DNA of 36,585 bases, taken from the IMG/VR virus record IMGVR_UViG_3300032274_000025, positions 1 through 36,585 of that record; one strand, given 5' to 3'. The stretch comes from a virus. Lineage: Duplodnaviria > Caudoviricetes. The position numbers were made by a program, and so were the translations under genes. Of the stretch, positions 2,332 through 35,984 are shown in pieces; the stretch's first letter is position 1, and every line of letters begins with the position of its first letter. Under the pieces are notes generated by a model that saw only the letters and a program-made list of their open reading frames with translations, was not told where the DNA came from and made no database searches.

Positions 2332-2540
2332 CCTGCGTGTGGTGCCACGGCACCCATGAGTGCTGCGCATGCGCCGCGTACACGACGCCGGACGGGTGCG
2401 CGCACTGTCAGGGGTCGGGACGCTGCCACGCGTGCCTCGAGTTGCCGTTGCGGCGACGCGTTGGCTCGGACCTGACGATCGACGATGCGAGTCAGGACGG
2501 GATGCAGATGGCGGTTGACTACTTCTTGGAGGGGACATGA
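2328..2540 (+). CDS. Small Cys-rich protein, DnaJ-like zinc finger
   Basis: CVWCHGT, CCAC, CAHCQGSGRC, CHAC; ATGA overlaps at both ends. Confidence 0.7.
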   Translation: MTCVWCHGTHECCACAAYTTPDGCAHCQGSGRCHACLELPLRRRVGSDLTIDDASQDGMQMAVDYFLEGT

Positions 2541-3436
2541 TCGAAGACATCGAGAAATACCACGTCGCCGGCTCTATCTCTGGGGGCAAGGACTCCTGTG
2601 CGATGTGGCTGCACCTGCGCGAGATGGGCGTGGAGATTGATCCAGTGTTCATGGATACCGGATGGGAGTCCGACGCCACGTACATTTATCTAGACCGCCT
2701 GGAGGACTACTTCGGCACCGAGATCAAACGCATTTCAGACCCCGGGCCAGCGCTGACAGAAGAGACAGCGCCCGTCGTCGAACGCTTCGAGAAGATGGTT
2801 GGCCGTCGCTCATCCATGGTTCGTTGGATTGTCCACAAGGGAACGTTTCCGAGTCGCGGTCGGCGCTGGTGTACCCAGCAACTCAAGATTGCACCGATGA
2901 AGTTGTACCTGGACAGCATCGAGGACGCAGAACCCCTGAATGCAGTTGGCATCCGCGCGGAAGAGTCGGTCAAGCGGGCGGCGCTTCCGGTGTTTGAGTA
3001 TTCCGAGAAGTGGAAGTGCGACGTGTGGCGTCCCGTTCACGGATTCACGTTCGCCGATGTCGTGGACATCCACAGCAGGCATGGGCTAGAGCCGTGCGAC
3101 CTGTACCTAGACGGGGCCAAGCGACTGGGCTGCTGGCCATGCATCTACGCGTGCAAATCGGAACTGCGCACCATCGGAAGGCGGGATCAAAAGAGGGTCG
3201 CAACGCTTCGGGCCATGGAGGAGTGGCTTACCGAGAAGAAGAACGCCAAGCGTGGATGGTTTCAGAACCGGCGAGACCAGACCGACGGAACTCCATGGCA
3301 CATTGACGAGGTGTTGACATGGGCCAACACCTCACGGGGAGGGCGACAGCCCGAGTTGTTCACGGCGCACAAGCGCGACCGGGGTTGCATGGACTGGGGC
3401 CTATGCGACACCGGAGGCGGCAGCGATGAAGCGTAG
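2537..3436 (+). CDS. PAPS reductase-family (PP-loop, CysH/DndC-like) protein
   Basis: SGGKDS PP-loop, DTGWE, RWCTQQLK, GIRAEES..R, RLGCWPC. Confidence 0.9.
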   Translation: MIEDIEKYHVAGSISGGKDSCAMWLHLREMGVEIDPVFMDTGWESDATYIYLDRLEDYFGTEIKRISDPGPALTEETAPVVERFEKMVGRRSSMVRWIVHKGTFPSRGRRWCTQQLKIAPMKLYLDSIEDAEPLNAVGIRAEESVKRAALPVFEYSEKWKCDVWRPVHGFTFADVVDIHSRHGLEPCDLYLDGAKRLGCWPCIYACKSELRTIGRRDQKRVATLRAMEEWLTEKKNAKRGWFQNRRDQTDGTPWHIDEVLTWANTSRGGRQPELFTAHKRDRGCMDWGLCDTGGGSDEA

Positions 3437-3724: not shown

Positions 3725-4409
3725 TCTCTTCGCTGGCATTGGTGGCCTTGAACTCGGCATTGAGTCCGCGCTGGATGCGGAGACTATTTGGCAGGTTGAG
3801 ATCGACCCATTCTGCCGGCAGGTGCTCACGAAACATTGGCCAGAGGCGACACGGTATGACGACATCAGAGGGCTCACAGGGCTTGCTTCCGTTGACATCA
3901 TCTGCGGGGGGTTCCCCTGCCAGGACCTTAGCGGCGCCAACCACCGAGGCGGCGACGGGCTCGCAGGCGCCCAAAGTGGCCTCTGGTTCGAAATGCTCCG
4001 AATCATCCGAGAGTGTCGGCCGCGCTTCGTCGTCATCGAGAACGTCTCTCGACTCGCTCGGAGGGGTCTGGACGTCGTTGTCAGTGGGCTCGTCGATGAA
4101 GGTTTCGAGGTGGAAGCCACGCGCATCGAGGCCGGAATGGTGGGCGCACCCCATCACCGGGAACGCCTACTCATCGTGGCTAGCCACCCCGACAGAGACA
4201 GCGAACCAGTGGGCGCCAAGCATGGCAAAATGGCCCGGATGTGCGGCTCTACAACGATGGTTTCGCGCGAGTGGCGCAACGTTCGAATGGCTGATGGGAT
4301 TCCCCATCGGATGGACAGACGTCGAATGAGGGCGCTTGGCAATGCCGTGGTGCCCCGGGTTGGCGCCATCGCCGGGGCGCGAATCGCAGAGGTGCTACAT
4401 GCCCTGTGA
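3711..4409 (+). CDS. DNA cytosine-5 methyltransferase, alpha-type subunit (motifs I-VIII and X)
   Basis: FAGIGG (I), GGFPCQDLS (IV), IENV (VI), HHRERL (VIII), ALGNAV (X); no motif IX in this frame; GGAGG RBS. Confidence 0.92.
   Translation: MRVGSLFAGIGGLELGIESALDAETIWQVEIDPFCRQVLTKHWPEATRYDDIRGLTGLASVDIICGGFPCQDLSGANHRGGDGLAGAQSGLWFEMLRIIRECRPRFVVIENVSRLARRGLDVVVSGLVDEGFEVEATRIEAGMVGAPHHRERLLIVASHPDRDSEPVGAKHGKMARMCGSTTMVSREWRNVRMADGIPHRMDRRRMRALGNAVVPRVGAIAGARIAEVLHAL
3856..4329 (+). CDS. Putative nested beta subunit of the C5-MTase (+1 frame, carries motif IX)
   Basis: Open frame ending in FEWLMGFPIGWTD (motif IX-like), preceded by WLATPT; ATG 3856 with GAGG upstream; start uncertain. Confidence 0.7.
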   Translation: MTTSEGSQGLLPLTSSAGGSPARTLAAPTTEAATGSQAPKVASGSKCSESSESVGRASSSSRTSLDSLGGVWTSLSVGSSMKVSRWKPRASRPEWWAHPITGNAYSSWLATPTETANQWAPSMAKWPGCAALQRWFRASGATFEWLMGFPIGWTDVE

Positions 4410-4584
4410 AACGTGCGGCGGACTCAAGACGATCGGCCAACGTGTCGCCGGTGGCTTCGAGGGCGTGCCTTGCCCCGTCTGCCGTCCGTGGCCCGACCAC
4501 GAGAAGACGATGCGTGAACGATACAACGATCTGCGACCCGGGTGCTCCTATGCGGAGTGGGTTCGCAGCATGGGGGTGAAGTGA
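4399..4584 (+). CDS. Small zinc-finger protein
   Basis: CETCGG...CPVC; GAGG RBS. Confidence 0.6.
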   Translation: MPCETCGGLKTIGQRVAGGFEGVPCPVCRPWPDHEKTMRERYNDLRPGCSYAEWVRSMGVK

Positions 4585-4775
4585 TGAAGACCGCATGCCC
4601 GAAGTGCAAAGCGCTGACGCAGAGCAGGACGTGGAGGCCACCCAGCGCCAAGAACTTCGTAGAGGTGTACGAGTGCGGGAGCGTGTACTTGTGGGGGCTG
4701 TTCAGCGTTACGAAGGAACGGGAGTTACTGCCATGCGTCCAGATCGAGCAGGAGGACGACCCATGTACCACCTGA
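4584..4775 (+). CDS. Small Cys-containing hypothetical protein
   Basis: CPKC, YECGS; TGATG overlap. Confidence 0.6.
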   Translation: MKTACPKCKALTQSRTWRPPSAKNFVEVYECGSVYLWGLFSVTKERELLPCVQIEQEDDPCTT

Positions 4776-4852
4776 AGTTTGACGGCCTCCGCACCAACGG
4801 CAAGCACTGGAAGCCCGACCCGGGTTGGACGTGTCCGAGGTGTCGGTCATGA
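4763..4852 (+). CDS. 29-aa peptide with CPRC
   Basis: GGAGG RBS; stop overlaps the next ATG. Confidence 0.45.
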   Translation: MYHLKFDGLRTNGKHWKPDPGWTCPRCRS

Positions 4853-5034
4853 CCCGCCCGCTACACCGACCGCTGCGCAAGCCGCTCACGCTGGGGCTAC
4901 GGAGGGGCAGCCAAAGCCTCGATGCCACCCGGGCATTCAGCGGGTGGCGAGCGATGCCCAACGTGTACGGCGTCACGTTGCGGGGCTGCTTGATGGCGGC
5001 CACACACGTCGACATGAGGCGGCGCACGCGCTAG
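4849..5034 (+). CDS. Basic hypothetical protein
   Basis: ATGA overlap; end of the coupled chain. Confidence 0.45.
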   Translation: MTRPLHRPLRKPLTLGLRRGSQSLDATRAFSGWRAMPNVYGVTLRGCLMAATHVDMRRRTR

Positions 5035-5048
5035 ACTGACAGACCACA

Positions 5049-5143
5049 GTCGGACCGTGACCCGACGCAATCAAAGTATGCCCCACGGGGCAACACGCAG
5101 CCGCTCCCCGATGCGTCACGGCTCGGGTGAGCGGCCATGCGTG
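5049..5143 (+). ncRNA. Candidate structured cis-RNA element A (three hairpins, kissing loops)
   Basis: GTCGG/CCGAC stem, TGCCCC/GGGGCA stem, GCCGCTC-CCCGA/TCGGG-T-GAGCGGC stem; loop segments CCGTGAC and GTCACGG are complementary. Confidence 0.5.
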
Positions 5144-5153
5144 GAGGCAAGAC

Positions 5154-6395
5154 ATGGACCCTGACGAAATGCCGCCATGGCTGGACGAGGAGTCACCACA
5201 ACCCATCGACCTGACCGGCGGGCCGCCAGCAAACGAGCCGGACCACCTAGCGCATGCGGCGCTTGACATGGTGCATACGCGCTACTCGTCCTATCCGAAG
5301 AAGAGCAAGCGAAACATCGCCCTCATCCTCGAACTCGACCGCCGGTGGAAGGATGAGATTCGCCTCAACCTCTTCGATGGTCAGGTCTACATCCGGGGTG
5401 CCGCGGTCGACGACACGTCAGAGACTGAGATCGCCATCTGGATTGACCGGCACTACGGCATCGACGCGTCGACGGTGATGGTGAGTGAGATCGTTCGGCT
5501 CATCGCGACCCGGCACTCCTATCACCCCATCCGTGATTACATGGCGGGCCTTGAGTGGGACGGCACCGAGCGGGTAAAGCACCTGCTTCGGGACTTCTTC
5601 GGGGCAGATGACACCCCCCTGAACCGCGTGCTGGCTCGCTGCTTCCTCGTCTCGTGTGTCGCCCGGGTCATGGTGCCCGGCTGCAAGGTGGACACCGTGC
5701 TCATCCTGAAGGGCTTGCAAGGCAAGGGCAAGAGCGAAGGCTTCCGGGCGCTCGCCTCTGACGACTGGTTCAGCGACTCGGCGATCGAGATGGGGCATAA
5801 GGACGGGTACGGCGCGCTCAACGGTGTTTGGATTTACGAGTTCGGTGAGCTCGACAGCCTCAACCGCAAAGAGGCAGCGACGGCCAAGGCGTTCTTGTCC
5901 GGCCGCACCGACCGCTACCGCCCCAGCTACGGGCGCAACTTCATCACCCAGAAGCGGCAGACCGTCATCGTGGGCACGACCAACGAGGAGACGTTCTTGA
6001 AGGACGCCACGGGATCACGGCGGTACTGGCCTGTCGAGGTGCATGACCCCGACGTGGAAGGCATCGAGAAGGCGAGGGATCAACTCTGGGCCGAGGCGTT
6101 GCAACTCTACAAAGAGGGTTGGACGTGGTGGCTTTGGGAGACACAGGCCGATGAACTGCGAGCTGCGTCTGAGGTGTGGCGGGATGTCGATGTGTGGGAC
6201 AGCGAGGTAAGGCGATGGTGCCAGGGGCGCGTGTTCGTGACGGTTTTCGAGGTGCTTGATCAGGCAATCAAGATGCCAGCCGACCGCATGAGCAAAGGCG
6301 CGCAGATGAGGGTGGCGAAGGTGCTACAAGCGGCAGGGTGGCGGAAGTGCAGGCAGGGGATCGACCGAGTGTCGGGATGGGAGCCGCCGGAGTGA
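5154..6395 (+). CDS. VapE/VirE-family P-loop ATPase (putative replicative helicase)
   Basis: YHPIRDY, PGCKVD, Walker A GLQGKGKS, WIYEFGEL, YRPSYGR, GTTN, DATGSRRYWP; ATG 5154 with GGAGG (ORF track starts at GTG 5127). Confidence 0.9.
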   Translation: MDPDEMPPWLDEESPQPIDLTGGPPANEPDHLAHAALDMVHTRYSSYPKKSKRNIALILELDRRWKDEIRLNLFDGQVYIRGAAVDDTSETEIAIWIDRHYGIDASTVMVSEIVRLIATRHSYHPIRDYMAGLEWDGTERVKHLLRDFFGADDTPLNRVLARCFLVSCVARVMVPGCKVDTVLILKGLQGKGKSEGFRALASDDWFSDSAIEMGHKDGYGALNGVWIYEFGELDSLNRKEAATAKAFLSGRTDRYRPSYGRNFITQKRQTVIVGTTNEETFLKDATGSRRYWPVEVHDPDVEGIEKARDQLWAEALQLYKEGWTWWLWETQADELRAASEVWRDVDVWDSEVRRWCQGRVFVTVFEVLDQAIKMPADRMSKGAQMRVAKVLQAAGWRKCRQGIDRVSGWEPPE

Positions 6396-6540
6396 GAATC
6401 CGACGCACCACACCTAAAACGGCCACAGAAACTATTTGTTTTATTCCAATGCCCCACTACCCATAAAAAGGTGAGGAGGTGTGTCAGAGTGGCTTCCAGT
6501 GCGGCCGCACACCTCGGACGCACCTCGCCACACCTCATGG
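6396..6540. other. Putative replication origin (CACCT iterons and AT-rich core)
   Basis: CACCT at 6411, 6510, 6521, 6531 and inverted AGGTG at 6469, 6477, around an AT-rich tract AAACTATTTGTTTTATTCCAAT; lies directly after the VapE gene. Confidence 0.55.
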
Positions 6541-6549
6541 TGATAGGAT
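6539..6549 (+). promoter_or_regulatory. Possible extended -10 promoter for the packaging genes
   Basis: TGA-TAGGAT just upstream of ATG 6556; shares TGGTGATAG with the promoter at 35795. Confidence 0.35.
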
Positions 6550-6555
6550 GGTCAT

Positions 6556-6921
6556 ATGGCAAAGAAGCCCCCTAGCAACGTAACGAAGCTCCAGATCGTA
6601 CCGCCTCCGCCCTCGGCGGAAGAGATGGCCGAGACGGATCGATTGAGCGTCCTGAAAGCAGTGAGGAGCATCGACGGGCTGATTGATGCGGCCATCACGA
6701 AGGCATCCGAGGGGCTGATCGACCAGCAGCAAGGGGCTCGGACTCTTCGGGGGGGGCTGGACCTCGAGCTAGCAAGGGCAGCTGCAACCTGGGTGCAGGT
6801 TCGCCGCGCGCTCATCGACAGCCACCCGGGGCTGATGAGCGTACAGGGCATCCACGCAGCGCCCGCCGATGTGACGCCGGAAGAGCTGGCGGCGATGATT
6901 GTCGAGGAGCTGGCAGGTTGA
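6556..6921 (+). CDS. Putative terminase small subunit
   Basis: Helical 121-aa protein overlapping the TerL start; positional inference only. Confidence 0.5.
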   Translation: MAKKPPSNVTKLQIVPPPPSAEEMAETDRLSVLKAVRSIDGLIDAAITKASEGLIDQQQGARTLRGGLDLELARAAATWVQVRRALIDSHPGLMSVQGIHAAPADVTPEELAAMIVEELAG

Positions 6922-8321
6922 GCCTGACTGATGCTGAGGTGCTCGAGGGGTGTCGCCGCATGTCGAACGACAAGCGGCAAGAGATGGCGGCGCGTATCGC
7001 AGCGAAACAGAGGCACAGGAAGGCGCACCCGCTCGCCTACGCCACGCTGTGGCACTCGGCCAAGACCAGCCAGCGTGACGCCGTGGCGTGCGTATTTGAC
7101 CCCTCCGTGACCGAGGTGTGGATGCTCGGGGGGAATCGGTCAGGCAAATCCGAAGGCGCAGCCATGACGGATATCGTTTGGGCGCTCGGTCGTGACCACC
7201 CCGACAGCCAAGCATGGGCGGCTCGCAACGGCATCGACATCTCGTGCGTGCAGCCGGGTCCGGGCCTCGTGTACAACGGAGCTCCGACCGGCAACGACTC
7301 GAGGCGGTACGTGAGGCCGAAGATCCGGAAGTACTGCCCGGAGGGGACTACGTATCGCTCATGGGGCAGCGACAACGAGGCTGAGGCCACGCTGCCGAAC
7401 GGCGGGCGCATCGTCTGCAAGACGGTCAAGCAGGGGCGCGAGGGTTGGCAGGGTGATGCTTGCCATTACGTCCGCTTCGACGAAGAGCCGTCTGATGGCG
7501 CCGTTGTGCGTGAGGCGATGGCTAGGCTGATCGACTTCGACGGGAAGATCTGCTTCTCGATGACGCCACTGAACGGGTGGACCGACCTGCTTGAGTCGCA
7601 CGTGCGCACGCCTGACCCTGATGTGCGTGTGCGCTGGCTGCATGGTGAGGACAACCCGCACATTCCGAACGAGGCCCTGAACCGCATCCTGTCCAAGTTC
7701 GGCGCCCATGAGCGGGACGCCCGGCTGCGTGGTGAGATCGTCGCCCTCGAGGGTCGGGTCTTCACGGACTGGCGCCGAGACATGCACGTCATCCCGTCGC
7801 AGCCTATCCCCGATGACTGGCTCCGGTTCGTCGGCTGGGACTTCGGCACGCGCAACCCGACGGCGGTGGTGTGGATGGCGCACGACCCGAAGGACGATGT
7901 GGTCCACGTGTACCGCCTGCACTACGAGGCTGACCGGACGTTGGCATGGCATGCCGAGCGGTTCACCAAGTTGTCAGAGGGCGAGGCCATCGAGTTCGTA
8001 TGCGCTGACTCTGCCGACCGTGGCGCGCGGCTCTCACTGGTGCAGGAGGGCATCACGACGGTAGCCAGCCGGAAGGGGCCGAACAGCATCCGCGACGGTA
8101 TCAACACGATCGCCGCCCGACTGGCCCCCGATGCCGAGGGCAGGCCGCACCTGGTCATCCACGAGTGCTGCACGGAGCTCATCAAAGAGATCGAGTCGTA
8201 CCGATGGGACACGACCAAGAAGAAGGGCGACATGGCTGATGCTCCGCTGAAGAAGCAAGACCACGCCATCGACGCTATGAGGTACGCTCTGACCATGTTT
8301 CAGCGAGGCGGGTATGTCTAA
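6918..8321 (+). CDS. terL: Terminase large subunit
   Basis: GGNRSGKS Walker A, RFDEE Walker B, SMTP, GWDFG nuclease motif, DHAIDAMRY. Confidence 0.95.
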   Translation: MSLTDAEVLEGCRRMSNDKRQEMAARIAAKQRHRKAHPLAYATLWHSAKTSQRDAVACVFDPSVTEVWMLGGNRSGKSEGAAMTDIVWALGRDHPDSQAWAARNGIDISCVQPGPGLVYNGAPTGNDSRRYVRPKIRKYCPEGTTYRSWGSDNEAEATLPNGGRIVCKTVKQGREGWQGDACHYVRFDEEPSDGAVVREAMARLIDFDGKICFSMTPLNGWTDLLESHVRTPDPDVRVRWLHGEDNPHIPNEALNRILSKFGAHERDARLRGEIVALEGRVFTDWRRDMHVIPSQPIPDDWLRFVGWDFGTRNPTAVVWMAHDPKDDVVHVYRLHYEADRTLAWHAERFTKLSEGEAIEFVCADSADRGARLSLVQEGITTVASRKGPNSIRDGINTIAARLAPDAEGRPHLVIHECCTELIKEIESYRWDTTKKKGDMADAPLKKQDHAIDAMRYALTMFQRGGYV

Positions 8322-9660
8322 CGACCGCGACGAATATGACGCATCCATCGACCTGGCCCACCGCAATCGCGAGTTCACCCCGGGCATCGTGGCCCCCGGC
8401 ATGGTGCTGTACGACCGTCATGGAAACCCCGTCGGGTGCTCGAACAACCCGCTGCAGGTCGGACCCCGTGAGGCGTTCGGCGGTCTCGCTGTTGCCTCTC
8501 CCCGCTCGCTCTTCGACAGCAAGCTTGACGTTGAGGGCGAGGCCGGCGTCTCGTGGTTCGAGGACATCAGCGCCACGGGCGCCACATTCACCCACAACTC
8601 GAGCGCCAGTACCGCCACGCTGTCGATCGGCAACAGCGGCACGACCCCCGACGGGTCACGCAGCATCCGCCGATCAAGGGTTACGCCGTACATCCCGGGG
8701 CACGGGAAGCGCGTCTTCCTGACCTTCTGCTTTGAGGAGGCGACCGCCGCCGCGAACGTTCAGAAGAACGTCGGCATGTTCGACGACAGCGACGGCACCA
8801 TCCTCCGGCAGACGTCCGCGGGTGTCACCCTGCTCATCCGTGACAGCACGAGCGGCACGGTGGTCGAGACCAACGCCGTTGACCAAGCGGATTGGGACGA
8901 CCCCTTCGACGGGACGGGGCCGAGCGGCATTACGGCGGACTGGTCGAAGCGGCAGATCCTTGTCATCGATCTACAGTGGCTGGGCGTTGGTGCTGTTGCT
9001 GTGGCGCTCGATATTGACGGCGTCATCTACTCTGCGCACGTCTTCAAGCATGCGAACATGGGCAGCGGTCGCCCGTACATGGCGACGGCCGTGCTGCCGG
9101 TCAGCTACGAGATCATCGCCAGTGGTGCAGCCATCTCTTCAAAGCAGGACCTCACGCAGATCTGCTGCTCGGTACAGAGCTTTGGCACTGAGTCTGCGCT
9201 GGTTCAGGACGACATCGCAAGCAACCGCACCACATCCAGGCTTGCAGCCACCACCGGTACGCCAGTGGTCAGCATGCGCGCCAACAGCGCCCGTGTTCCG
9301 CTCGAGCCCGCAGAGGTCGACCTGCTCAACGGCGAGAGCTCCAAGTCGCTCTATTGGGAGCTCGTCTTCAACGGCGCGCTCACCGGCGCATCGTTCAGCG
9401 CGGCGAGCGGCGACACGCACCACGATATCGACGTGTCAGCCACAGCCATCACCGGCGGCAAGCCCATCGCGAGCGGCTACGTCGCGGCTGCTGGCGGAGG
9501 GCAGGCGGCTACCACGCTGTCCGCCGTGCTTGCGTCCCGCGTACGCCTGGGGATCGGCCTCGATTCGGTAGGGGATACGCTGTCCCTGGTCATCTACAAC
9601 CTCGGAACCGGCACAGCCGCATGCTATGGCACCATCCAGTGTGCGAGCTACCACGGGTAG
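8314..9660 (+). CDS. Putative virion-associated beta-rich protein
   Basis: Ser/Thr/Ala/Gly-rich, predicted beta strands; EAFGGLAVASPRSLFDS, YIPGHGK and DLQWLGVG resemble an uncharacterised phage structural family. Confidence 0.55.
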   Translation: MSNDRDEYDASIDLAHRNREFTPGIVAPGMVLYDRHGNPVGCSNNPLQVGPREAFGGLAVASPRSLFDSKLDVEGEAGVSWFEDISATGATFTHNSSASTATLSIGNSGTTPDGSRSIRRSRVTPYIPGHGKRVFLTFCFEEATAAANVQKNVGMFDDSDGTILRQTSAGVTLLIRDSTSGTVVETNAVDQADWDDPFDGTGPSGITADWSKRQILVIDLQWLGVGAVAVALDIDGVIYSAHVFKHANMGSGRPYMATAVLPVSYEIIASGAAISSKQDLTQICCSVQSFGTESALVQDDIASNRTTSRLAATTGTPVVSMRANSARVPLEPAEVDLLNGESSKSLYWELVFNGALTGASFSAASGDTHHDIDVSATAITGGKPIASGYVAAAGGGQAATTLSAVLASRVRLGIGLDSVGDTLSLVIYNLGTGTAACYGTIQCASYHG

Positions 9661-9694
9661 ACAACTCCGCCCGCATCCGCTAGGCTCATCTCAC

Positions 9695-9787
9695 GCCGAA
9701 CGTCTACCGGCTGTCACAAGATTGGCGACTCCATCGAGGGTTGCCCGCCCGCCCGGGAGTAGACGCTCGGGTCGGGCGCTTGGAGTT
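9695..9787 (+). ncRNA. Candidate structured cis-RNA element B (same architecture as A)
   Basis: GCCG/CGGC stem, GGCGACTC/GGGTTGCC stem, CGCCCG-CCCGGG/CTCGGG-T-CGGGCG stem; loop segments CGTCTAC and GTAGACG are complementary. Confidence 0.5.
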
Positions 9788-9792
9788 TCGAT

Positions 9793-10122
9793 ATGGGAGA
9801 AGAGACGAACCGCCCAATCAACAGCCTCGCGGACGTCGAGCGCTTTGGCGATGCCGACCTTGAGGTGGTGCGGGCCAAGCTGGACGTGGCGCTCTCGGAC
9901 ATGGCGGATGGTGCTGACTACAAGTGCAGCGTCAACGTCGGGGTCAAGAGCCGCAAGAAGGACGCCCGCCTTCCCCGTCACGTGGGCTGGTTCCACGTTG
10001 AAGGCTTCTCGCTTGTGGCCCGGTACGCGGCGACGGTGCGGGACCTGAAGGCCGAGAACGAGAAGCTGAAAGCCATGCTTCACCTGATTCGCAAGGGGGT
10101 AACATGGACGCACATCCAGTAG
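9793..10122 (+). CDS. Hypothetical protein with C-terminal coiled coil
   Basis: TGGAG RBS; DLKAENEKLKAML. Confidence 0.7.
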   Translation: MGEETNRPINSLADVERFGDADLEVVRAKLDVALSDMADGADYKCSVNVGVKSRKKDARLPRHVGWFHVEGFSLVARYAATVRDLKAENEKLKAMLHLIRKGVTWTHIQ

Positions 10123-10490
10123 ATACGATTTTACTCATCCCCGCCCCGGGCTCGACGCTGCTGGATGATGCGTGTGCGCCTGTGGCGTACCGCCTGAAGG
10201 AGTCGAACGACCCGGAGTCTTGGACGTTGTGGCGCTTTCCGTCAAGGGTCAAACACCGTACAAATCTGGTCCGTGAGCGCGCCATCGTCCTCGCCCGTGA
10301 CGGCAAGGTGCAGGAACACGGGTGTCTGACGTTGGCGGACAGCACCCAAAGCGATTTTGAGACACTGCGCGGCCTTACGGTCCATGCCGCACTCATTGGC
10401 AAGTCCGCTCGACTCCTTGCCTTAGTCGAGGCGCACTACCCCGACGCCCGCCTCGTCTTCATCGCTGGCGGTGTGGAGGTGGCGCTGTGA
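10104..10490 (+). CDS. Hypothetical protein
   Basis: Tiles between its neighbours; locally more AT-rich codons. Confidence 0.6.
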   Translation: MDAHPVDTILLIPAPGSTLLDDACAPVAYRLKESNDPESWTLWRFPSRVKHRTNLVRERAIVLARDGKVQEHGCLTLADSTQSDFETLRGLTVHAALIGKSARLLALVEAHYPDARLVFIAGGVEVAL

Positions 10491-10774
10491 AGCGTTGGTG
10501 GTTCAGCTGGCACGGACCGGAAGACGACTGGCGCGCGGTGCGATGGCCCCCGCCTGATGGGTGGTTGGGCTACTGGTGCAGCGGCTACGACGACGAAGGC
10601 GCTACCGTGGTCGGGTGGGCTGAGGCCGAGTCAGAGGCCGGTTGCGTGGCTCTCGTGAAGGCCAGTTGGCCGGAGTGGGATGGCGTGTGGCGCATCGAGC
10701 CGTCCGAAAAGCCCGACCCGCCGGGGAGTAGGTTCCCGCGCGCCGATGGCTTTCCAGAGTGGGAGAACCGATGA
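10487..10774 (+). CDS. Trp-rich hypothetical protein
   Basis: GTGA overlap; GGAGG RBS. Confidence 0.7.
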   Translation: MKRWWFSWHGPEDDWRAVRWPPPDGWLGYWCSGYDDEGATVVGWAEAESEAGCVALVKASWPEWDGVWRIEPSEKPDPPGSRFPRADGFPEWENR

Positions 10775-11484
10775 TCATCACCGCCACGACCATCGACATC
10801 AGCCAGCCGAAGACCGGGAGCACGTGGCGCCGTCGCTGCTTGGCGCCCATCATCGGGGCGGAGACGAACTTCCTCGATGGGAAGGAGTACCGCAACGGGC
10901 ATGTGCCTCTCCATCGGTTCTCCTCGGCAGCACTCGAGGGCCGCACGGTGCGCGCTGTCGTCCGCAACCCGTGGGACTGGTACGTGTCGACGTGGTGCCA
11001 CATGCGCGGCAGCGTGGCGAAGAGTTCGCAGATACGGCGCCAGTTCACGCTGTGGGCCGGCGGTCGGGAGCCGACGTGGGAAAGCGTGCTGTATGGCTGG
11101 ACGCACCCGTGGGAGTTGGAGGCGCTGCCAGATCGTGAAGACGCGGTTTACAATCCGGGCACCGCCGCTTCTCGCTTTCGACGTACTTGCAACGGGCTCT
11201 GGACGTGGCATACGTCCTGGTTTCACGGCATCGCCATGTGCTCGGTGTGGCCGCCTGTGCGCATCGACTCCGCGCAGCAGGTCGAAGCCTATGCCGCGCT
11301 GTACCCGGAACACGCGGACGCCATCAGAGCGCAGGCGCCCATCAACGTCGGGACGACTGACGGGGAGTGGTGGACACCGGAGCGGGTGCGCTGGGTCGAA
11401 GAGGCGGACGACTTCCTCTCTCGGCGTTTCGGTTACGATGGTCCGGGGGCCGTGTCGTCACGCGGTCCGATGTGGAGGCTGTGA
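10771..11484 (+). CDS. Sulfotransferase-family protein (Sulfotransfer_2-like)
   Basis: 5'-PSB-like QPKTGST, 3'-PB-like VVRNPWDWYVS, C-terminal INV...WWTPE..V...D...RFGY. Confidence 0.75.
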   Translation: MIITATTIDISQPKTGSTWRRRCLAPIIGAETNFLDGKEYRNGHVPLHRFSSAALEGRTVRAVVRNPWDWYVSTWCHMRGSVAKSSQIRRQFTLWAGGREPTWESVLYGWTHPWELEALPDREDAVYNPGTAASRFRRTCNGLWTWHTSWFHGIAMCSVWPPVRIDSAQQVEAYAALYPEHADAIRAQAPINVGTTDGEWWTPERVRWVEEADDFLSRRFGYDGPGAVSSRGPMWRL

Positions 11485-11732
11485 TGATTCCTGATTCTAT
11501 TTTGAGGGCTGCTGAGGGGGCATTGTACGGCGAGGGTGACTACACCCCATCGTCCGCCCTTGTTGCCGCTGGCTGCGAGTCATCTTTCGCCATGCACGAT
11601 CGGGATGAGTGGGAGACGGAGATGACAGCGCGGTACCTTGGCGTGTTCTACCGCCTCAAATACACCGTCAACGGCTACGATGTTGTCGGCACCGTTGAAC
11701 CGGGACCGAATAGCGGAGGAATGGCAGCATGA
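11484..11732 (+). CDS. Hypothetical protein
   Basis: TGATG overlap; GGAGG RBS. Confidence 0.6.
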   Translation: MIPDSILRAAEGALYGEGDYTPSSALVAAGCESSFAMHDRDEWETEMTARYLGVFYRLKYTVNGYDVVGTVEPGPNSGGMAA

Positions 11733-11845
11733 GTGCGAAGAAGCAGAAGCCAAAGCGGGTGATCTCTCGCAACAACCGCGGCACGGGCGTGCTATTGCCC
11801 GCCTCGCCGTTGTTGAATGCAGCACTCGAAGCGAAGAAGCCATGA
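11729..11845 (+). CDS. 38-aa basic peptide
   Basis: MSAKKQKPKRVISRNN...; ATGA overlaps at both ends; GGAGGA RBS. Confidence 0.5.
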   Translation: MSAKKQKPKRVISRNNRGTGVLLPASPLLNAALEAKKP

Positions 11846-12033
11846 GCAAGCCAAGCCGAAAGAAGACGCCCGCGGGCATTGTGGTCCTCGGGCCGGATGA
11901 CAAGGCCCCGGCCGAGCTCGCGCGCTGGTCTGCGCCTGGTCCTGGGTACCATCCCGGGGCTGCGGTCAAGCACAAGGGCAAGGTCTACGTGACGCCGGAC
12001 TTCCCGCTGGCGGTCGCTGTGGCGATGCTGTGA
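11842..12033 (+). CDS. Hypothetical protein
   Basis: ATGA overlap. Confidence 0.55.
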   Translation: MSKPSRKKTPAGIVVLGPDDKAPAELARWSAPGPGYHPGAAVKHKGKVYVTPDFPLAVAVAML

Positions 12034-12533: not shown

Positions 12534-12766
12534 TGCTGTTGCTCCTGCTGATTGCCTGCGTCTCCGAATACGACCGAGGCTGCGAGTACGCGCGGACGTC
12601 GACGGCCTATGAGATGGGTGTGGCTGATGCCGAGGCCGGCCTGTCCGTCTGGGATGGCTCATGGCGTGGCATTGAGTGCAGCCCCCCGGAAGAGTTCGCG
12701 GAGGGCTGCTACACGTGTGCGTTCGAGATGTACGGCGAGGGCTACGCCTCGGTGCCTGCGAGGTAG
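12533..12766 (+). CDS. Putative small lipoprotein
   Basis: MLLLLLIA-C lipobox-like start; acidic, Cys-containing mature part. Confidence 0.6.
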   Translation: MLLLLLIACVSEYDRGCEYARTSTAYEMGVADAEAGLSVWDGSWRGIECSPPEEFAEGCYTCAFEMYGEGYASVPAR

Positions 12767-13461
12767 TCAGCGACTGACAGCACCTTGGTCGGCTCGAGCC
12801 CACGAAGGTACTCCTCGACCGATGGTCCTTCGACCTCTTGCGCCATGATGTGGCCGACGATGGCCGCGCGGATCTCCGGATCGTTGCGCACCGCCTCGAG
12901 CACGAGTTCTGGCACGTTGGCCAGGGCCTCCTTCACCGCGTCGGCGATGGCGTCGGGCTCTTCGATGGAGCGGATGGCCAGGGCCTCGGCGTTCGCCGGG
13001 ATGGTCACGGCGCTGATCTCCAGAAGCTCGTTCTGTGCCAGCACCATGCCGGTGGCTGCATGCTTCGGGTGGTTCTCGCCGAGTGCCGAGCGGGGGGTGA
13101 CGCTGCCCGGCCGGAAGCCGACAGACACAGTGTTCAGCGTGCCGTTGCGGAACTGCTCCGCGACGGTGTTGGCGAGGGGGTTGTGGTCGCCCTCGTCGAA
13201 CTTCGGACGGAATGTCAGCGCCTGCCCGATGCCTTCGATCTCCTCGACTCGGACGTCAAGCGCGCGTCCAACGGGTGGAGTGCTCGGGTCGTGCGCCCAC
13301 AGCATCACCGGGTTTGCGTTGAAGTTGTCGAGAAGCCACGACTGGTCAACGATGTCGCCCATACGATCGCTCGTAGAGGTGCTGGCAATGATGCGCATCT
13401 CGCCATCGTCGCCATCTTGGCGGGTGAAGATGACATCAATTTCGCGCTTGAGGTGTCTCAT
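12742..13461 (-). CDS. HK97-family prohead protease
   Basis: ASTSTSDRMGD, NPVMLWAHD, VSVGF, ELLEISAVTIPAN. Confidence 0.93.
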   Translation of the reverse strand: MRHLKREIDVIFTRQDGDDGEMRIIASTSTSDRMGDIVDQSWLLDNFNANPVMLWAHDPSTPPVGRALDVRVEEIEGIGQALTFRPKFDEGDHNPLANTVAEQFRNGTLNTVSVGFRPGSVTPRSALGENHPKHAATGMVLAQNELLEISAVTIPANAEALAIRSIEEPDAIADAVKEALANVPELVLEAVRNDPEIRAAIVGHIMAQEVEGPSVEEYLRGLEPTKVLSVADYLAGTEA

Positions 13462-13465
13462 GGGT

Positions 13466-15478
13466 CTACTCCAGCACCGGAATCAAGGTGCATCTGCAGT
13501 TTGCGTCTAGCGCAGCCGAACCGAACCCGCCCGGATAGCGTGCCCCCTCGCCTGTCGCCGTGTGGAACTCTTCGCCGACCTCGACCGTCTGCCCGTCGAG
13601 TGTACGGTGCGCGGCTCTGACTTCGCCATCGCGAGCGGTCAACCACTGCTTCTTGACCGGGAGGCCATCGGCAGCGGCTTGCCCGTATGCCTGCTCCGCG
13701 CCAGCGTTGACGAACCGGGTGGCCTCGGTCCGGGCAATCTGGAGCGACCGGCGGGCGCTGAACCCATACGAGCGCAGCAGGGTGTTCTGAACGTCGTTGA
13801 CGCTCTGCCCTTCGGACAAGCCGGCGAGGATGGAGCGGATGACGTTGCCCTGCGTACTGGCCATGAAGATCGCAGTACTGCGCGTCTTCTCTTCGAGGTT
13901 GGCGAGCGTGGGGTCGAAGACGAGACGAGCGCCCATGCGGAGGGCTGCGGCACGGAAGGCCCGAACCAGCGCCGACCTCATAGGCAGGCGCAGCGCCTTG
14001 ACGATGGCCGCCTCTTCTTCTGCGACGGCGAGGATGGCCAGGATTTGCTCATTGCTGAGCGCCTTCGTGGTGATGCCTCGCTGCTCGTCGGTTCGCCCTG
14101 CCACCTCTTCGATGCGCTTGGCGTAGCGGCGCACGGCGTCCCGAAGGTATCGCATCGTCGCAAGGTGCAGGTCCCGCTCTGACGGGGCGTGTACGGAGTC
14201 GATGAAGTTGCGCCACGTGTCGGCGCGCTCATTCTCGGTGCGGGGAAGGGCCTTGGTCTCTTCCTCGTTCTGTTCTTCGGGCTCCTCCTCCACAGCGGGC
14301 TCGGGAGCGAAGACCACGAACGCGTCCTCTGGTACCTCGATGCCCTCCATTTCGTAGGCTGCAACCGCGTCGATGCCGTTCATGATGTGCATCTGCACCC
14401 GTGACAGCCGTTCGGTGCGCGACTCTTGCAGCGCCTCTACCTCTGAGAAGTCGAAGACCACGACGTCGTTCGCCTCGCCGACTCGACGGGCAAGCCAAGT
14501 CAACGCGTCAGCGAGAGCCGCAGCGGGGCCACCACGCAACGACTCCCAATAGGTCTTCATCTGCTGCTGCTGCGTGGCGAAGTTCGCAGTGGGCAGCGAC
14601 AGCCGGGCAGGCGGCACACTGAACGTGGCAAGGGTCGCGTCTCGTGTGTCGCTGCGCTGCTCGGAGAACTCGAGGTCTCGCGGGGTCGCGCTCACTGAAT
14701 CGAACTTGACGCCGCTTCCAAGGATGAGGTACCCGCTGCCCTCGCTTGACCAGCGGCTGACTGCCTCCTTGACGCGCTTTACGATGGCATCGCCCCAGTT
14801 CGACAGGTCGCCATCTTGCGGACTGAACACGCCCTCGAGCCGCCCGCGCTTGGCGGCGTCCGCGGTCATCTTCTTGGCGGCGAGGTCTGCGGTCAGGTCT
14901 GCGTGCAAGGCGCGGATGGACCCCTCACCTACGATGGCCTCGATGCTGTCGGACCACGATGCGTTGCGCACGTGCAACACGTCTTCCCACTCGTAGTTGA
15001 CGCTCCCCTGGTACTGGTAGCCCTGAATCTGACCGTCGCTCTGCGGCACTGGTTCGGTGCGGTTCGGGTGCATCCGAAGCAGGGACTGACCGCCTTGGAT
15101 GAGGCTGTAGTGGTTGCCCGCGAGTTCATAGTCTACGACCGCCTGACGAATCCACTCGCGCCACGTTGTTCGCGTTGCGGGCCTGCTGATGATGGCGGTG
15201 ACCGGGTGGTTCTCGACCTCTGCCCCGTTGCGCATGACCTTGATGGAGAGGCCGGACAGGTCGTCAGCTTTCGCGAGCACGCATGCTCGCACCCATGGGA
15301 AGGCGGACATTGCCGCCATGCTGTTCATGGTCGGGTACGACTGCACCGCGGGGCTGTCGGTGGCGAAGTCTGCGCCCGCCTGGAAGGTGTCGGGCTCGGT
15401 GAAGCGCAAGGCGCGGAGCATGCCTACGACGATCCTCGTCATGATGCCGGGTCGCTGTCGTACTGGAAGACTGCTCAT
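13466..15478 (-). CDS. Portal protein (HK97-like) fused to a C-terminal MuF-like minor head domain
   Basis: WVRACV, LAGNHY, VLHVR, RDLEF, FSVPP (portal); IARTE, KKQWLTARDGEVRAAH..LDGQ, NCRC (MuF). Confidence 0.9.
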   Translation of the reverse strand: MSSLPVRQRPGIMTRIVVGMLRALRFTEPDTFQAGADFATDSPAVQSYPTMNSMAAMSAFPWVRACVLAKADDLSGLSIKVMRNGAEVENHPVTAIISRPATRTTWREWIRQAVVDYELAGNHYSLIQGGQSLLRMHPNRTEPVPQSDGQIQGYQYQGSVNYEWEDVLHVRNASWSDSIEAIVGEGSIRALHADLTADLAAKKMTADAAKRGRLEGVFSPQDGDLSNWGDAIVKRVKEAVSRWSSEGSGYLILGSGVKFDSVSATPRDLEFSEQRSDTRDATLATFSVPPARLSLPTANFATQQQQMKTYWESLRGGPAAALADALTWLARRVGEANDVVVFDFSEVEALQESRTERLSRVQMHIMNGIDAVAAYEMEGIEVPEDAFVVFAPEPAVEEEPEEQNEEETKALPRTENERADTWRNFIDSVHAPSERDLHLATMRYLRDAVRRYAKRIEEVAGRTDEQRGITTKALSNEQILAILAVAEEEAAIVKALRLPMRSALVRAFRAAALRMGARLVFDPTLANLEEKTRSTAIFMASTQGNVIRSILAGLSEGQSVNDVQNTLLRSYGFSARRSLQIARTEATRFVNAGAEQAYGQAAADGLPVKKQWLTARDGEVRAAHRTLDGQTVEVGEEFHTATGEGARYPGGFGSAALDANCRCTLIPVLE

Positions 15479-34226: not shown

Positions 34227-34330
34227 AAAGCACCTCCATAGTTGATCACCCATGCGAAGGGCGTGAAGCCGACGATACACAGACCGGCGGCGATGTCTTG
34301 CGCGTATTCGCGCAGGGTGTAGGGGGTCAT
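34223..34330 (-). CDS. 35-aa hydrophobic peptide
   Basis: MTPYTLREYAQDIAAGLCIVGFTPFAWVINYGGAF; overlaps at both ends. Confidence 0.55.
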   Translation of the reverse strand: MTPYTLREYAQDIAAGLCIVGFTPFAWVINYGGAF

Positions 34331-34914
34331 TGGTCGTCCTGCGTAGGCGGGGTGGGAATGTGCTGGCGTACGATGTCCGCGCACTCTGCGAGGGTTGCCG
34401 CGTCGGCGGCGGCGTCGGCGTCTGCGTCTGCGTAGGCGTAGGCGTAGGCGTAGGCGGCGTAGGCGGCGGCGTAGGCGGCGGCGTCGGCGGCGGCGTAGGC
34501 GTCGGCGTAGGCGGCGTAGGCGGCGTAGGCGGCGTCTGCGGCGGCGTAGGCGGAGGAGGCAGCACTCAAGGCGTCTGCGTAGGCGTAGGCGTAGGCGTAG
34601 GCGTCGGCGGCGGCTGCCCTCACCACGTCCAGCCCTACATCTCCCCTGCCCCACGCCTCTGCGGCCTCAATCGCCAGCCGAGGGCGATCCTCCCCGTCAG
34701 GCACATGCACGAGCGACAGCCGGGCACAGGCGCACGCTGCCATCACGACAGTCTTGTGGTCTGCTCCAGCGCGAGCCGCGTACCAGAGCAGCCAGTCTCC
34801 GCGCGGGCACTCGTCCCACGCCTTCTGAAGTGACCGTCGTTCGCCGACCCACGCGACGGCATCGTCGCAGGCGTTCATGTCGATGAGGTGCTGACGCAGG
34901 GTGTAGGGGGTCAC
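34327..34914 (-). CDS. Imm5-like domain protein with an Ala/Tyr/Asp low-complexity tract
   Basis: RGDWLLW, ACACAR, EDRPRLAIEAAEAW, ECADIVR; GTGA overlap. Confidence 0.75.
   Translation of the reverse strand: MTPYTLRQHLIDMNACDDAVAWVGERRSLQKAWDECPRGDWLLWYAARAGADHKTVVMAACACARLSLVHVPDGEDRPRLAIEAAEAWGRGDVGLDVVRAAAADAYAYAYAYADALSAASSAYAAADAAYAAYAAYADAYAAADAAAYAAAYAAYAYAYAYADADADAAADAATLAECADIVRQHIPTPPTQDDQ
34398..34616. repeat. Degenerate GCC/TAC/GAC codon tandem repeat
   Basis: Runs of GGCGTA, GGC and GCGTC on the + strand. Confidence 0.9.
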
Positions 34915-35246
34915 GGAAGCACCGTCAGGTCGGACACCGTGGGCCATCCGCAAGCGGCCAGGATGCAGAACGTGACGGCGAGCGAGCTGAGGCCAGCCAC
35001 GATGTAGGTGAGCACGACTTCCACAGCGTGCGCTGTTGCAGTGGTCCCATCCTTCCGCTCTTTGTTCTGCTTTATCGGGTTGGTCGTAATGGCCGCCACC
35101 ACGGACGAGAACGCCCATGCTTGCCACATGGTGGCGCCGATGCCGACCCATCCGAGAATGATGGTCACCACCCACGCATTCAGCACAGTGAGCACAGGCA
35201 GGCTGAAGAGCACAATCACCAGAGCCCAGAATGTATCGTCTTTCAC
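34911..35246 (-). CDS. Integral membrane protein
   Basis: About three hydrophobic segments; AGGAGG RBS. Confidence 0.7.
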   Translation of the reverse strand: MKDDTFWALVIVLFSLPVLTVLNAWVVTIILGWVGIGATMWQAWAFSSVVAAITTNPIKQNKERKDGTTATAHAVEVVLTYIVAGLSSLAVTFCILAACGWPTVSDLTVLP

Positions 35247-35825: not shown

Positions 35826-35984
35826 ATGTCCGAGACGAAGCATGTAGGTGTGGCGATGAGCGCTGACCTGAAAGAGAAGGCAGACACGATGGCCAAGGAC
35901 GACGGTGGGCGGTCTCTGTCCTCGCTCATCCGCAAGCTGCTTGAAGAGGCGTGGGCCAAGCGGGAAGAGGAGGCGAGCGCATGA
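35826..35984 (+). CDS. Ribbon-helix-helix (Arc/CopG-like) regulator
   Basis: KHVGVAMSADLKEKADTMA..GRSLSSLIRKLLEEA; GGAGG RBS. Confidence 0.85.
   Translation: MSETKHVGVAMSADLKEKADTMAKDDGGRSLSSLIRKLLEEAWAKREEEASA

Follow-up and report, generated by a model that had tools for sequence, protein, structure and literature searches.

We describe two structured RNA elements, A and B, in a whole-phage contig of 36,585 bases and 64% GC (IMG/VR record IMGVR_UViG_3300032274_000025), the full length of which we call the window. Element A (5049-5135) lies before a VapE gene and element B (9695-9778) before an open reading frame (ORF) starting at 9793. Both are built of three hairpins, P1, P2 and P3, and in both loop 1 is the exact 7-nucleotide (nt) complement of loop 3, with different letters in the two elements (CCGTGAC/GTCACGG in A and CGTCTAC/GTAGACG in B). 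We are confident that A and B represent a real structured leader, uncatalogued and, together with a copy C from another contig, known in three copies. More tentatively, the reading we prefer is that A and B may be translational gates, in which a predicted kiss between loop 1 and loop 3 would stretch the linker between P1 and P2 and thereby prevent a helix that buries the ribosome-binding site.

The first-pass annotation, made from the letters of the window, had named these hairpins and both loop matches, and all are present where it placed them on the + strand. In A, P1 (5049-5066, 5 bp, loop code at 5055-5061) is followed by a 12-nt linker (5067-5078) that contains UCAAAG and pairs weakly with the Shine-Dalgarno (SD) sequence. 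P2 (5079-5092) had been drawn as TGCCCC[ac]GGGGCA, a pairing that would leave just 2 nt for the loop; folding instead predicts TGCCC[CACG]GGGCA, with 5 bp and a CACG tetraloop. P3 of A (5100-5135) has 13 bp, bulged U5112 and U5128 and its loop code at 5115-5121, and a predicted 6-bp extension (5094-5099/5138-5143) enlarges it to 5094-5143, covering the first G of the SD sequence GGAGG of the VapE gene (5143-5147). In B, P1 (9695-9711, 4 bp, loop code at 9701-9707) leads into a 12-nt linker (9712-9723), of which TC at 9714-9715 and CAAG at 9717-9720 form the 5' strand of a predicted helix, P0. P2 of B (9724-9745, 8 bp, two G-U pairs) directly abuts P3 (9746-9778, 12 bp, bulged U9772, loop code at 9759-9765), after which CTTGGAG (9779-9785), identical in copy C, supplies both the 3' strand of P0 and the SD sequence GGAG (9782-9785). 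The three hairpins and their loop-loop match span 84-90 nt, and each of the three copies stops 3-8 nt before an SD sequence.

The search statistics depend strongly on the descriptor. A loose three-hairpin kissing descriptor gave 0.77 matches per shuffled strand (486 shuffles) and is worthless alone. The comparison with shuffled sequence proposed in the first-pass annotation came out in favor of the elements with a strict descriptor (a long, bulged P3 and a 7-nt kiss), which matched twice in the window and twice across all 687 dinucleotide shuffles, none of which contained two matches. Further, when the window was searched with a covariance model built from A alone, and blind to the kiss, no match other than A itself scored better than B (E 0.065). 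Between A and B, four of the seven kiss pairs are changed on both sides. Fold z-scores were -3.9 for A, -1.2 for B and -2.8 for C. That there is no RNA feature at all, the folds arising by chance where spacers are GC-rich or being inverted repeats to which an Arc-like repressor binds in the DNA, is scarcely credible: the GC content, the frequent loose-descriptor matches and the presence of an Arc-like repressor gene at 35829-35984 would fit such an explanation, but the shuffle tests of the strict descriptor and of a descriptor of the features common to A and B (see below) argue against it, as do the letters changed on both sides, which a DNA operator would keep, and the G-U pairs in P2 and P3 of B, which favor the + strand.

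The first-pass annotation could not match the elements to a named Rfam family, and cmscan of A, B and C agreed with it: Rfam 15 gave no match over A or B at E<=1 and none over A, B or C at E<=10. The elements thus gave no match to the small self-cleaving ribozymes (pistol, twister, hammerhead, HDV-like and hatchet), families that differ in topology from A, B and C. In the literature on phage kissing-loop leaders, new motifs and motif catalogs, no account of the element was found among titles and the beginnings of abstracts; motif lists in supplements and subscription journals could hold one.

Copy C came from 320 loci, 240 around VapE relatives and 80 around virion-protein relatives, and is the only such copy among them. 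It occupies positions 5280-5369 of an IMG/VR contig (L058), is intergenic and stands ahead of helicase, methylase, primase and VapE genes. Its code, GTACCAG/CTGGTAC, is a third one. C has ACAGTCGGA in common with A and the linker CAAGATT and the CTTGGAG after P3 in common with B, and its longer P1 is accompanied by a longer linker (18 versus 12 nt). The bulged T of P3 that had been described as kept is present in A and B but not maintained in C, where a G-U pair can form instead. The descriptor of the features common to A and B, which was relaxed after C had been seen, matched 1 of the 320 real loci (8.9 Mb) compared with no full match in 323 Mb of shuffles, and a model made only from B, in which the kiss was not represented, ranked C first among 100 loci (E 0.71; 0.033 in 47 kb). 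A rescan of the 320 loci for two kissing hairpins and an SD sequence, without the demand for P2, showed no enrichment overall (16 real versus 20 shuffled matches). In the fitted alignment of B and C, which leans to structure and whose P1 columns are misfitted for C, 8 of 30 pairs are changed on both sides. A second long GC-rich hairpin, scoring 13 bits with the B model, is located just upstream of C (L058:5215-5265).

Several other searches yielded no comparable element. An IMG/VR pattern on P3, which did not fit even A, was accompanied by a kiss in none of 52 matches; a corrected P3 pattern gave a 7-nt match in 1 of 114, with a comparable fold absent; and a pattern combining promoter and P3 gave 46 loci (33 distinct) with no match above 5 nt. 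These three patterns could not have found C-like members because they required GCTCGGGT, which is absent from C. A fourth pattern, the promoter consensus, gave 75 loci (53 distinct) with a 6-nt kiss in none. Single-protein scans with VapE and with ORF 9793 returned no locus, and blastn of A, B and C against cultured phages returned short chance pieces only. Myxococcota were searched because the few named VapE relatives come from Myxococcota bins: the A model gave weak matches in 6 of 151 genomes, with the fold in none; the B+C model matched in 4 of 151, with a kiss of at least 6 nt in none; and the linker/SD pattern matched in 52 of 401 genomes, with the architecture in none of the 38 matches inspected. 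On 50 viral records the B+C model, run without a positive control, gave no match.

Two sets of candidates were rejected. Loci L104 and L074 reached 20-21 bits with the B+C model (199 loci), but they have no kiss and overlap the 3' end of VapE. A three-hairpin kiss in Pseudomonas prophages (L181, L270 and L277) is not retained by the majority of the 92 distinct homologous stretches compared, and we attribute it to chance within a region that is origin-like. The hairpin cluster there (TTTCTC..GAGAAA, CACGCGTGCGCG) is conserved at about 90 loci of Pseudomonas prophages, including L181:11690-11820 on the minus strand. It is surrounded by GGGACAG repeats, follows the primase-helicase gene at a distance of 600-700 nt and is likely a replication origin.

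Putative promoters precede both elements of the window on the + strand. P_A (5009-5037, TCGACA-N17-TAGACT), one of three sites in the window with a 9/12 match, overlaps with its -10 hexamer the stop codon of the ORF at 4831-5034, and P_B (9658-9686, TAGACA-N17-TAGGCT), with an 8/12 match, a level found at 32 sites genome-wide, overlaps with its -35 hexamer the stop codon of a virion-protein gene. A relaxed sigma70 scan of both strands returned exactly these two sites, although this overstates the selectivity of the pattern because it was written after both sites had been seen. The gap from the promoter-like site to P1 is 11 nt in A and 8 nt in B, and from the predicted starts the elements would fill nearly the entire 5' leader. 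P_A and P_B have 17 of 29 bases in common, and because this level is reached at 29 genome positions, common descent of the two cassettes is not demonstrated. Overall, with promoter-like sites directly upstream, a third copy with a new code and no Rfam match, the earlier proposal of a repeated cis-acting leader RNA beside the SD sequence is strengthened.

Near the predicted starts, an 8-nt copy of the loop 3 region of A (4970-4977) and a 7-nt complement of loop 1 of B (9656-9662) lie within 100 nt upstream, matches noticed post hoc that are reached in 1.8 and 2.4% of windows, respectively. In read-through transcripts, such mimics of loop 3 could pair with loop 1 and so keep it from kissing; the predicted folds of A and B do not show this pairing, and C is without such a match within 100 nt.

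The position of both elements behind promoter-like sites bears on the idea of a put-like antiterminator, in which the nascent RNA would bind host RNA polymerase and allow read-through of the long operons behind P_A and P_B. HK022 putL and putR, as outlined in PMC9378689, are likewise two related structured RNAs per phage genome, each behind a host-type promoter (predicted only, in our case), and promoter scans of the window identified no further strong candidate on the + strand from which the packaging and structural genes could be transcribed. However, put, as that account has it, consists of about 70 nt in two stem-loops, with a triplex in the first stem, binds the beta' zinc-binding domain of RNA polymerase, suppresses termination and is presented there without a kissing code or a fixed link to an SD sequence, compared with three hairpins over 84-90 nt here. 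Moreover, antitermination does not need copies that end 3-8 nt before an SD sequence, and only two terminator-like sites are found on the + strand of the window. Overall, we consider antitermination decidedly improbable.

The case for a translational gate begins with helix P0. When B and C are folded to minimum energy, their linkers form a helix with the sequence that follows P3 (CAAG/CUUG, one bulge and UC/GA; longer in C), and the linker motif UC-N-CAAG and the CUUGGAG are identical in both copies. The predicted P0 has one and the same register in both copies, where it completes a P0/P2/P3 junction and masks the SD sequence, with a gain of -2.0 kcal/mol in B and -8.2 kcal/mol in C. Keeping the linker single-stranded raised SD opening in B from 0.13/0.35/0.43 to 0.60/0.67/0.91 and in C from 0 to 0.2-0.5. 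The cognate kisses are worth -10.5/-8.5/-9.1 kcal/mol as free duplexes compared with -0.3 to -1.9 kcal/mol for the cross-codes; the three loop codes, including the two within one genome, are mutually orthogonal.

A reach test, which is crude and handles junction geometry by trying all orientations, indicated that the kiss fits when P0 is open (64-73 Å needed versus 95-130 Å available), whereas with P0 closed in B it would need 31-81 Å on a 21-Å tether and is infeasible in every orientation tried. P0 and the kiss therefore appear, in this model, to be mutually exclusive in B and mostly so in C, and it is on account of this estimate that we read P0 as the OFF state and the kiss as, likely, translation ON. 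During transcription, the hairpins would fold in order, and loop 3 would emerge about 15-20 nt before the SD sequence, so that the kiss could form first and hold the ON state; because loop 3 is made before the SD sequence, RNAs initiated at the local promoter would be ON by default. If the kiss were lost, through a same-code competing RNA, a protein or another 5' context, P0 would close and translation would be shut off. Element A may be a weaker or merely damping version because its SD-side helix is the P3 extension, which is able to coexist with the kiss.

A number of results weigh against this reading. The six P0 pairs are identical in B and C (6/6), which gives no covariation support, and this identity could reflect constraints from the SD sequence and an A-rich linker. 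Linker-SD pairing did not differ significantly from shuffles (p 0.22, 0.28 and 0.057), and the whole leader compared with shuffles gave p 0.11 and 0.09. The energy gained from P0 in A is no more than 0.2 kcal/mol, and there the kiss and the P3 extension can form together (87 Å needed, 101 Å or more available); in C a P0 folded back along P3 could coexist with a bent kiss (27-48 Å versus 42 Å). The fold z-score of B is only -1.2, C has no sigma70-like site upstream, only three copies are known, and the models fail to join all of them, the A model missing C and the B and B+C models missing A.

The main rival to the translational gate is a constitutive 5' cap or insulator, in which the kiss would lock a weak 5'-terminal hairpin onto P3, shield the transcript end from nucleases and keep the leader off the ribosome-binding site without any switching. 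Consistent with this, P1 starts 8-11 nt after the -10 hexamers, a few nucleotides past the predicted starts, and is weak alone (-5.6 and -7.7 kcal/mol), the kiss adding -8.5 to -10.5 kcal/mol; such a role would also serve A equally, where P0 is nearly absent. Copy C, however, lies within a gene cluster with no promoter detected, and a cap leaves unexplained why B and C keep both strands of P0 while all loop letters change. We consider a cap unlikely.

The pairings with the SD sequence that the first-pass annotation had put forward are not those that the copies share. It had proposed CACGCA/TGCGTG as an alternative in A, but in the fold of lowest energy this pairing is a continuation of P3 and reaches no further into GGAGG than its first G; its second proposal, GACTCCA/TGGAGTT in B, is less stable than P2 by 4.8 kcal/mol, and C has nothing equivalent. 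We rejected P2 as an anti-SD element, being energetically worse and absent in C. An extended helix, in which the 5' strand of P1 and loop 1 pair with loop 3 and the 3' strand of P3, is a folding intermediate in A and B but is absent in C and hence not conserved. A transcription attenuator, with P3 as a terminator hairpin that lacks a U-tract and is weakened by the kiss, is very improbable: P3 is indeed a long GC-rich hairpin, but no U run follows it in any of A, B and C, and a terminator scan of the + strand does not flag it.

The orthogonal codes could also be read in trans. Loop 1 of one transcript would then kiss loop 3 of another with the same code and block its own kiss, P0 would close, and RNA alone would thereby provide feedback on copy number or against a superinfecting phage of the same code. 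Three orthogonal codes exist, two of them in one genome, and replication genes stand behind 2 of the 3 copies. There is also a precedent in IsrK of Gifsy-1, a prophage leader RNA whose alternative structures, according to the account in PMC4825925, gate translation of the first gene and whose terminator gives rise to a short isoform that regulates the long one in trans. Our elements resemble IsrK in having leader structures that would gate a first gene; unlike in IsrK as described there, an intrinsic terminator is not seen, and no U-tract follows P3 for the release of a short isoform. Further, a kiss within one molecule is sterically possible and would be expected to prevail when the RNA is scarce, complements elsewhere in the genome are no longer than 11-12 nt, and drift also yields orthogonal codes. 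Sensing in trans is thus distinctly unlikely, but if true, it would amount to protein-free sensing of copy number or superinfection in phage replication, without an antisense gene.

The likeness to the rep-activating pseudoknots of IncI/IncB plasmids suggested in the first-pass annotation is fair as a functional analogy, but A, B and C do not appear to be of the IncI type. In IncI1 and IncB repZ, an antisense RNA blocks a pseudoknot required for translation (PMC8053102, PMC10724649). As those sources describe it, the replication gene is translated only if a hairpin loop of its leader engages in a long-range pairing, as would be the case here, and repZ depends on a leader peptide. Unlike repZ, the leaders of B and C, read from sequence, have no SD-led frame, and that of A contains a 28-codon frame (5078-5164) without an SD sequence. 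No antisense sigma70-like site was found within 260 nt of A or C, and the antisense side of B has one 8/12 site at 9935, among the 32 such sites genome-wide. In addition, both partners here are hairpin loops, the code varies freely, and one copy leads non-replication genes.

The guanidine-IV (GGAM-1) riboswitch offers a steric logic comparable to what we propose. Its kissing hairpins, as proposed in PMC7736828, stretch a linker so that a regulatory helix or terminator cannot complete, and our two kissing hairpins may act by the same principle. Guanidine-IV, as that account presents it, acts on a Rho-independent terminator, and the bases that bind its ligand are highly conserved; our elements, by contrast, have no U-tract and no Rfam match, their loops vary, P2 is an additional hairpin and the predicted regulatory helix covers an SD sequence, and the downstream genes are VapE, an ORF of unknown kind and a helicase rather than sugE-type genes. 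These comparisons bear on whether A, B and C are themselves riboswitches, with a metabolite or phage protein stabilizing the kissed state. Size and position are riboswitch-like, the kissing-hairpin logic is similar to that of guanidine-IV, and the conserved CAA(A/G) linker and the CCCG/CGGG in P3 could form a tertiary dock; nevertheless, the three copies have few invariant unpaired bases in common and entirely different loops, the genes behind them have no metabolite connection, and Rfam is without a match, so that we regard a ligand- or protein-sensing riboswitch as quite improbable. By analogy, A, B and C seem to work like the repZ pseudoknot and guanidine-IV in logic and to be members of none of the systems compared.

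The contig that carries A and B has a terminal repeat of 127 bases and encodes two DNA methylases, RusA, a PAPS-reductase-family protein, the VapE-like helicase, terminase, portal, capsid and tail genes and the Arc-like repressor. Two microbial-mat DNA runs carry this DNA as one contig, identical over 4000-12000 and without variant letters in the regions compared; both may be the source of the record, so their agreement is not independent. No RNA dataset carrying this DNA is listed. The first gene behind A (5154-6395, + strand) encodes a VapE-like DNA helicase/primase-family ATPase of 413 amino acids (Pfam PF05272, E 1e-77; PHROG 1313), and the first gene behind B (9793-10122, + strand) encodes 109 amino acids without a match in homolog searches. 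The closest relatives by protein (P0003, P0004, P0123 and P0124) show 57-76% identity, and the leader comparison covered contigs other than theirs. In most stand-alone VapE relatives, the position immediately upstream is taken by a coding gene, which encodes a primase where this was checked (L058), whereas element A occupies this position in the window, in which no primase gene was recognized among the 63 ORFs scanned. Just after VapE (6396-6545), CACACCT/GAGGTGTG direct and inverted repeats surround an AT-rich patch, an arrangement that looks like an iteron-type replication origin.

A sulfotransferase-like protein (10759-11484; Atlas 0.96, TM 0.7) is encoded in the cluster behind B and is possibly, together with the PAPS-reductase-family gene at 2537-3436, a sulfur-based modification pair. 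The portal/MuF gene and a prohead-protease-like ORF (12742-15478) are on the minus strand, and the terminase, capsid and tail genes are on the plus strand; this orientation is unbroken in the contigs of both runs, and no clear inverted repeats were found at the borders of 12742-15478. The Arc-like gene (35829-35984) is of the ribbon-helix-helix type and stands back to back with a leftward sigma70-like site (35815-35787). TAGA/TCTA boxes in P_A, P_B and the loops of B are, we presume, reminiscent of Arc operators. No integrase was recognized in the window. The ORF at 34327-34923 on the minus strand ends in a long C-terminal Ala/Tyr/Asp low-complexity tract (AAYAAYADA repeats).

Control of phage replication genes is usually ascribed to proteins or antisense RNAs. 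If A and B are translational gates, an interchangeable kissing code would control access to the ribosome-binding site by strain, as a translational counterpart of the steric idea proposed for guanidine-IV, and would point to a broader uncataloged design. The three natural, mutually orthogonal codes provide a ready compensatory-swap test and are possible orthogonal parts for synthetic RNA regulators.

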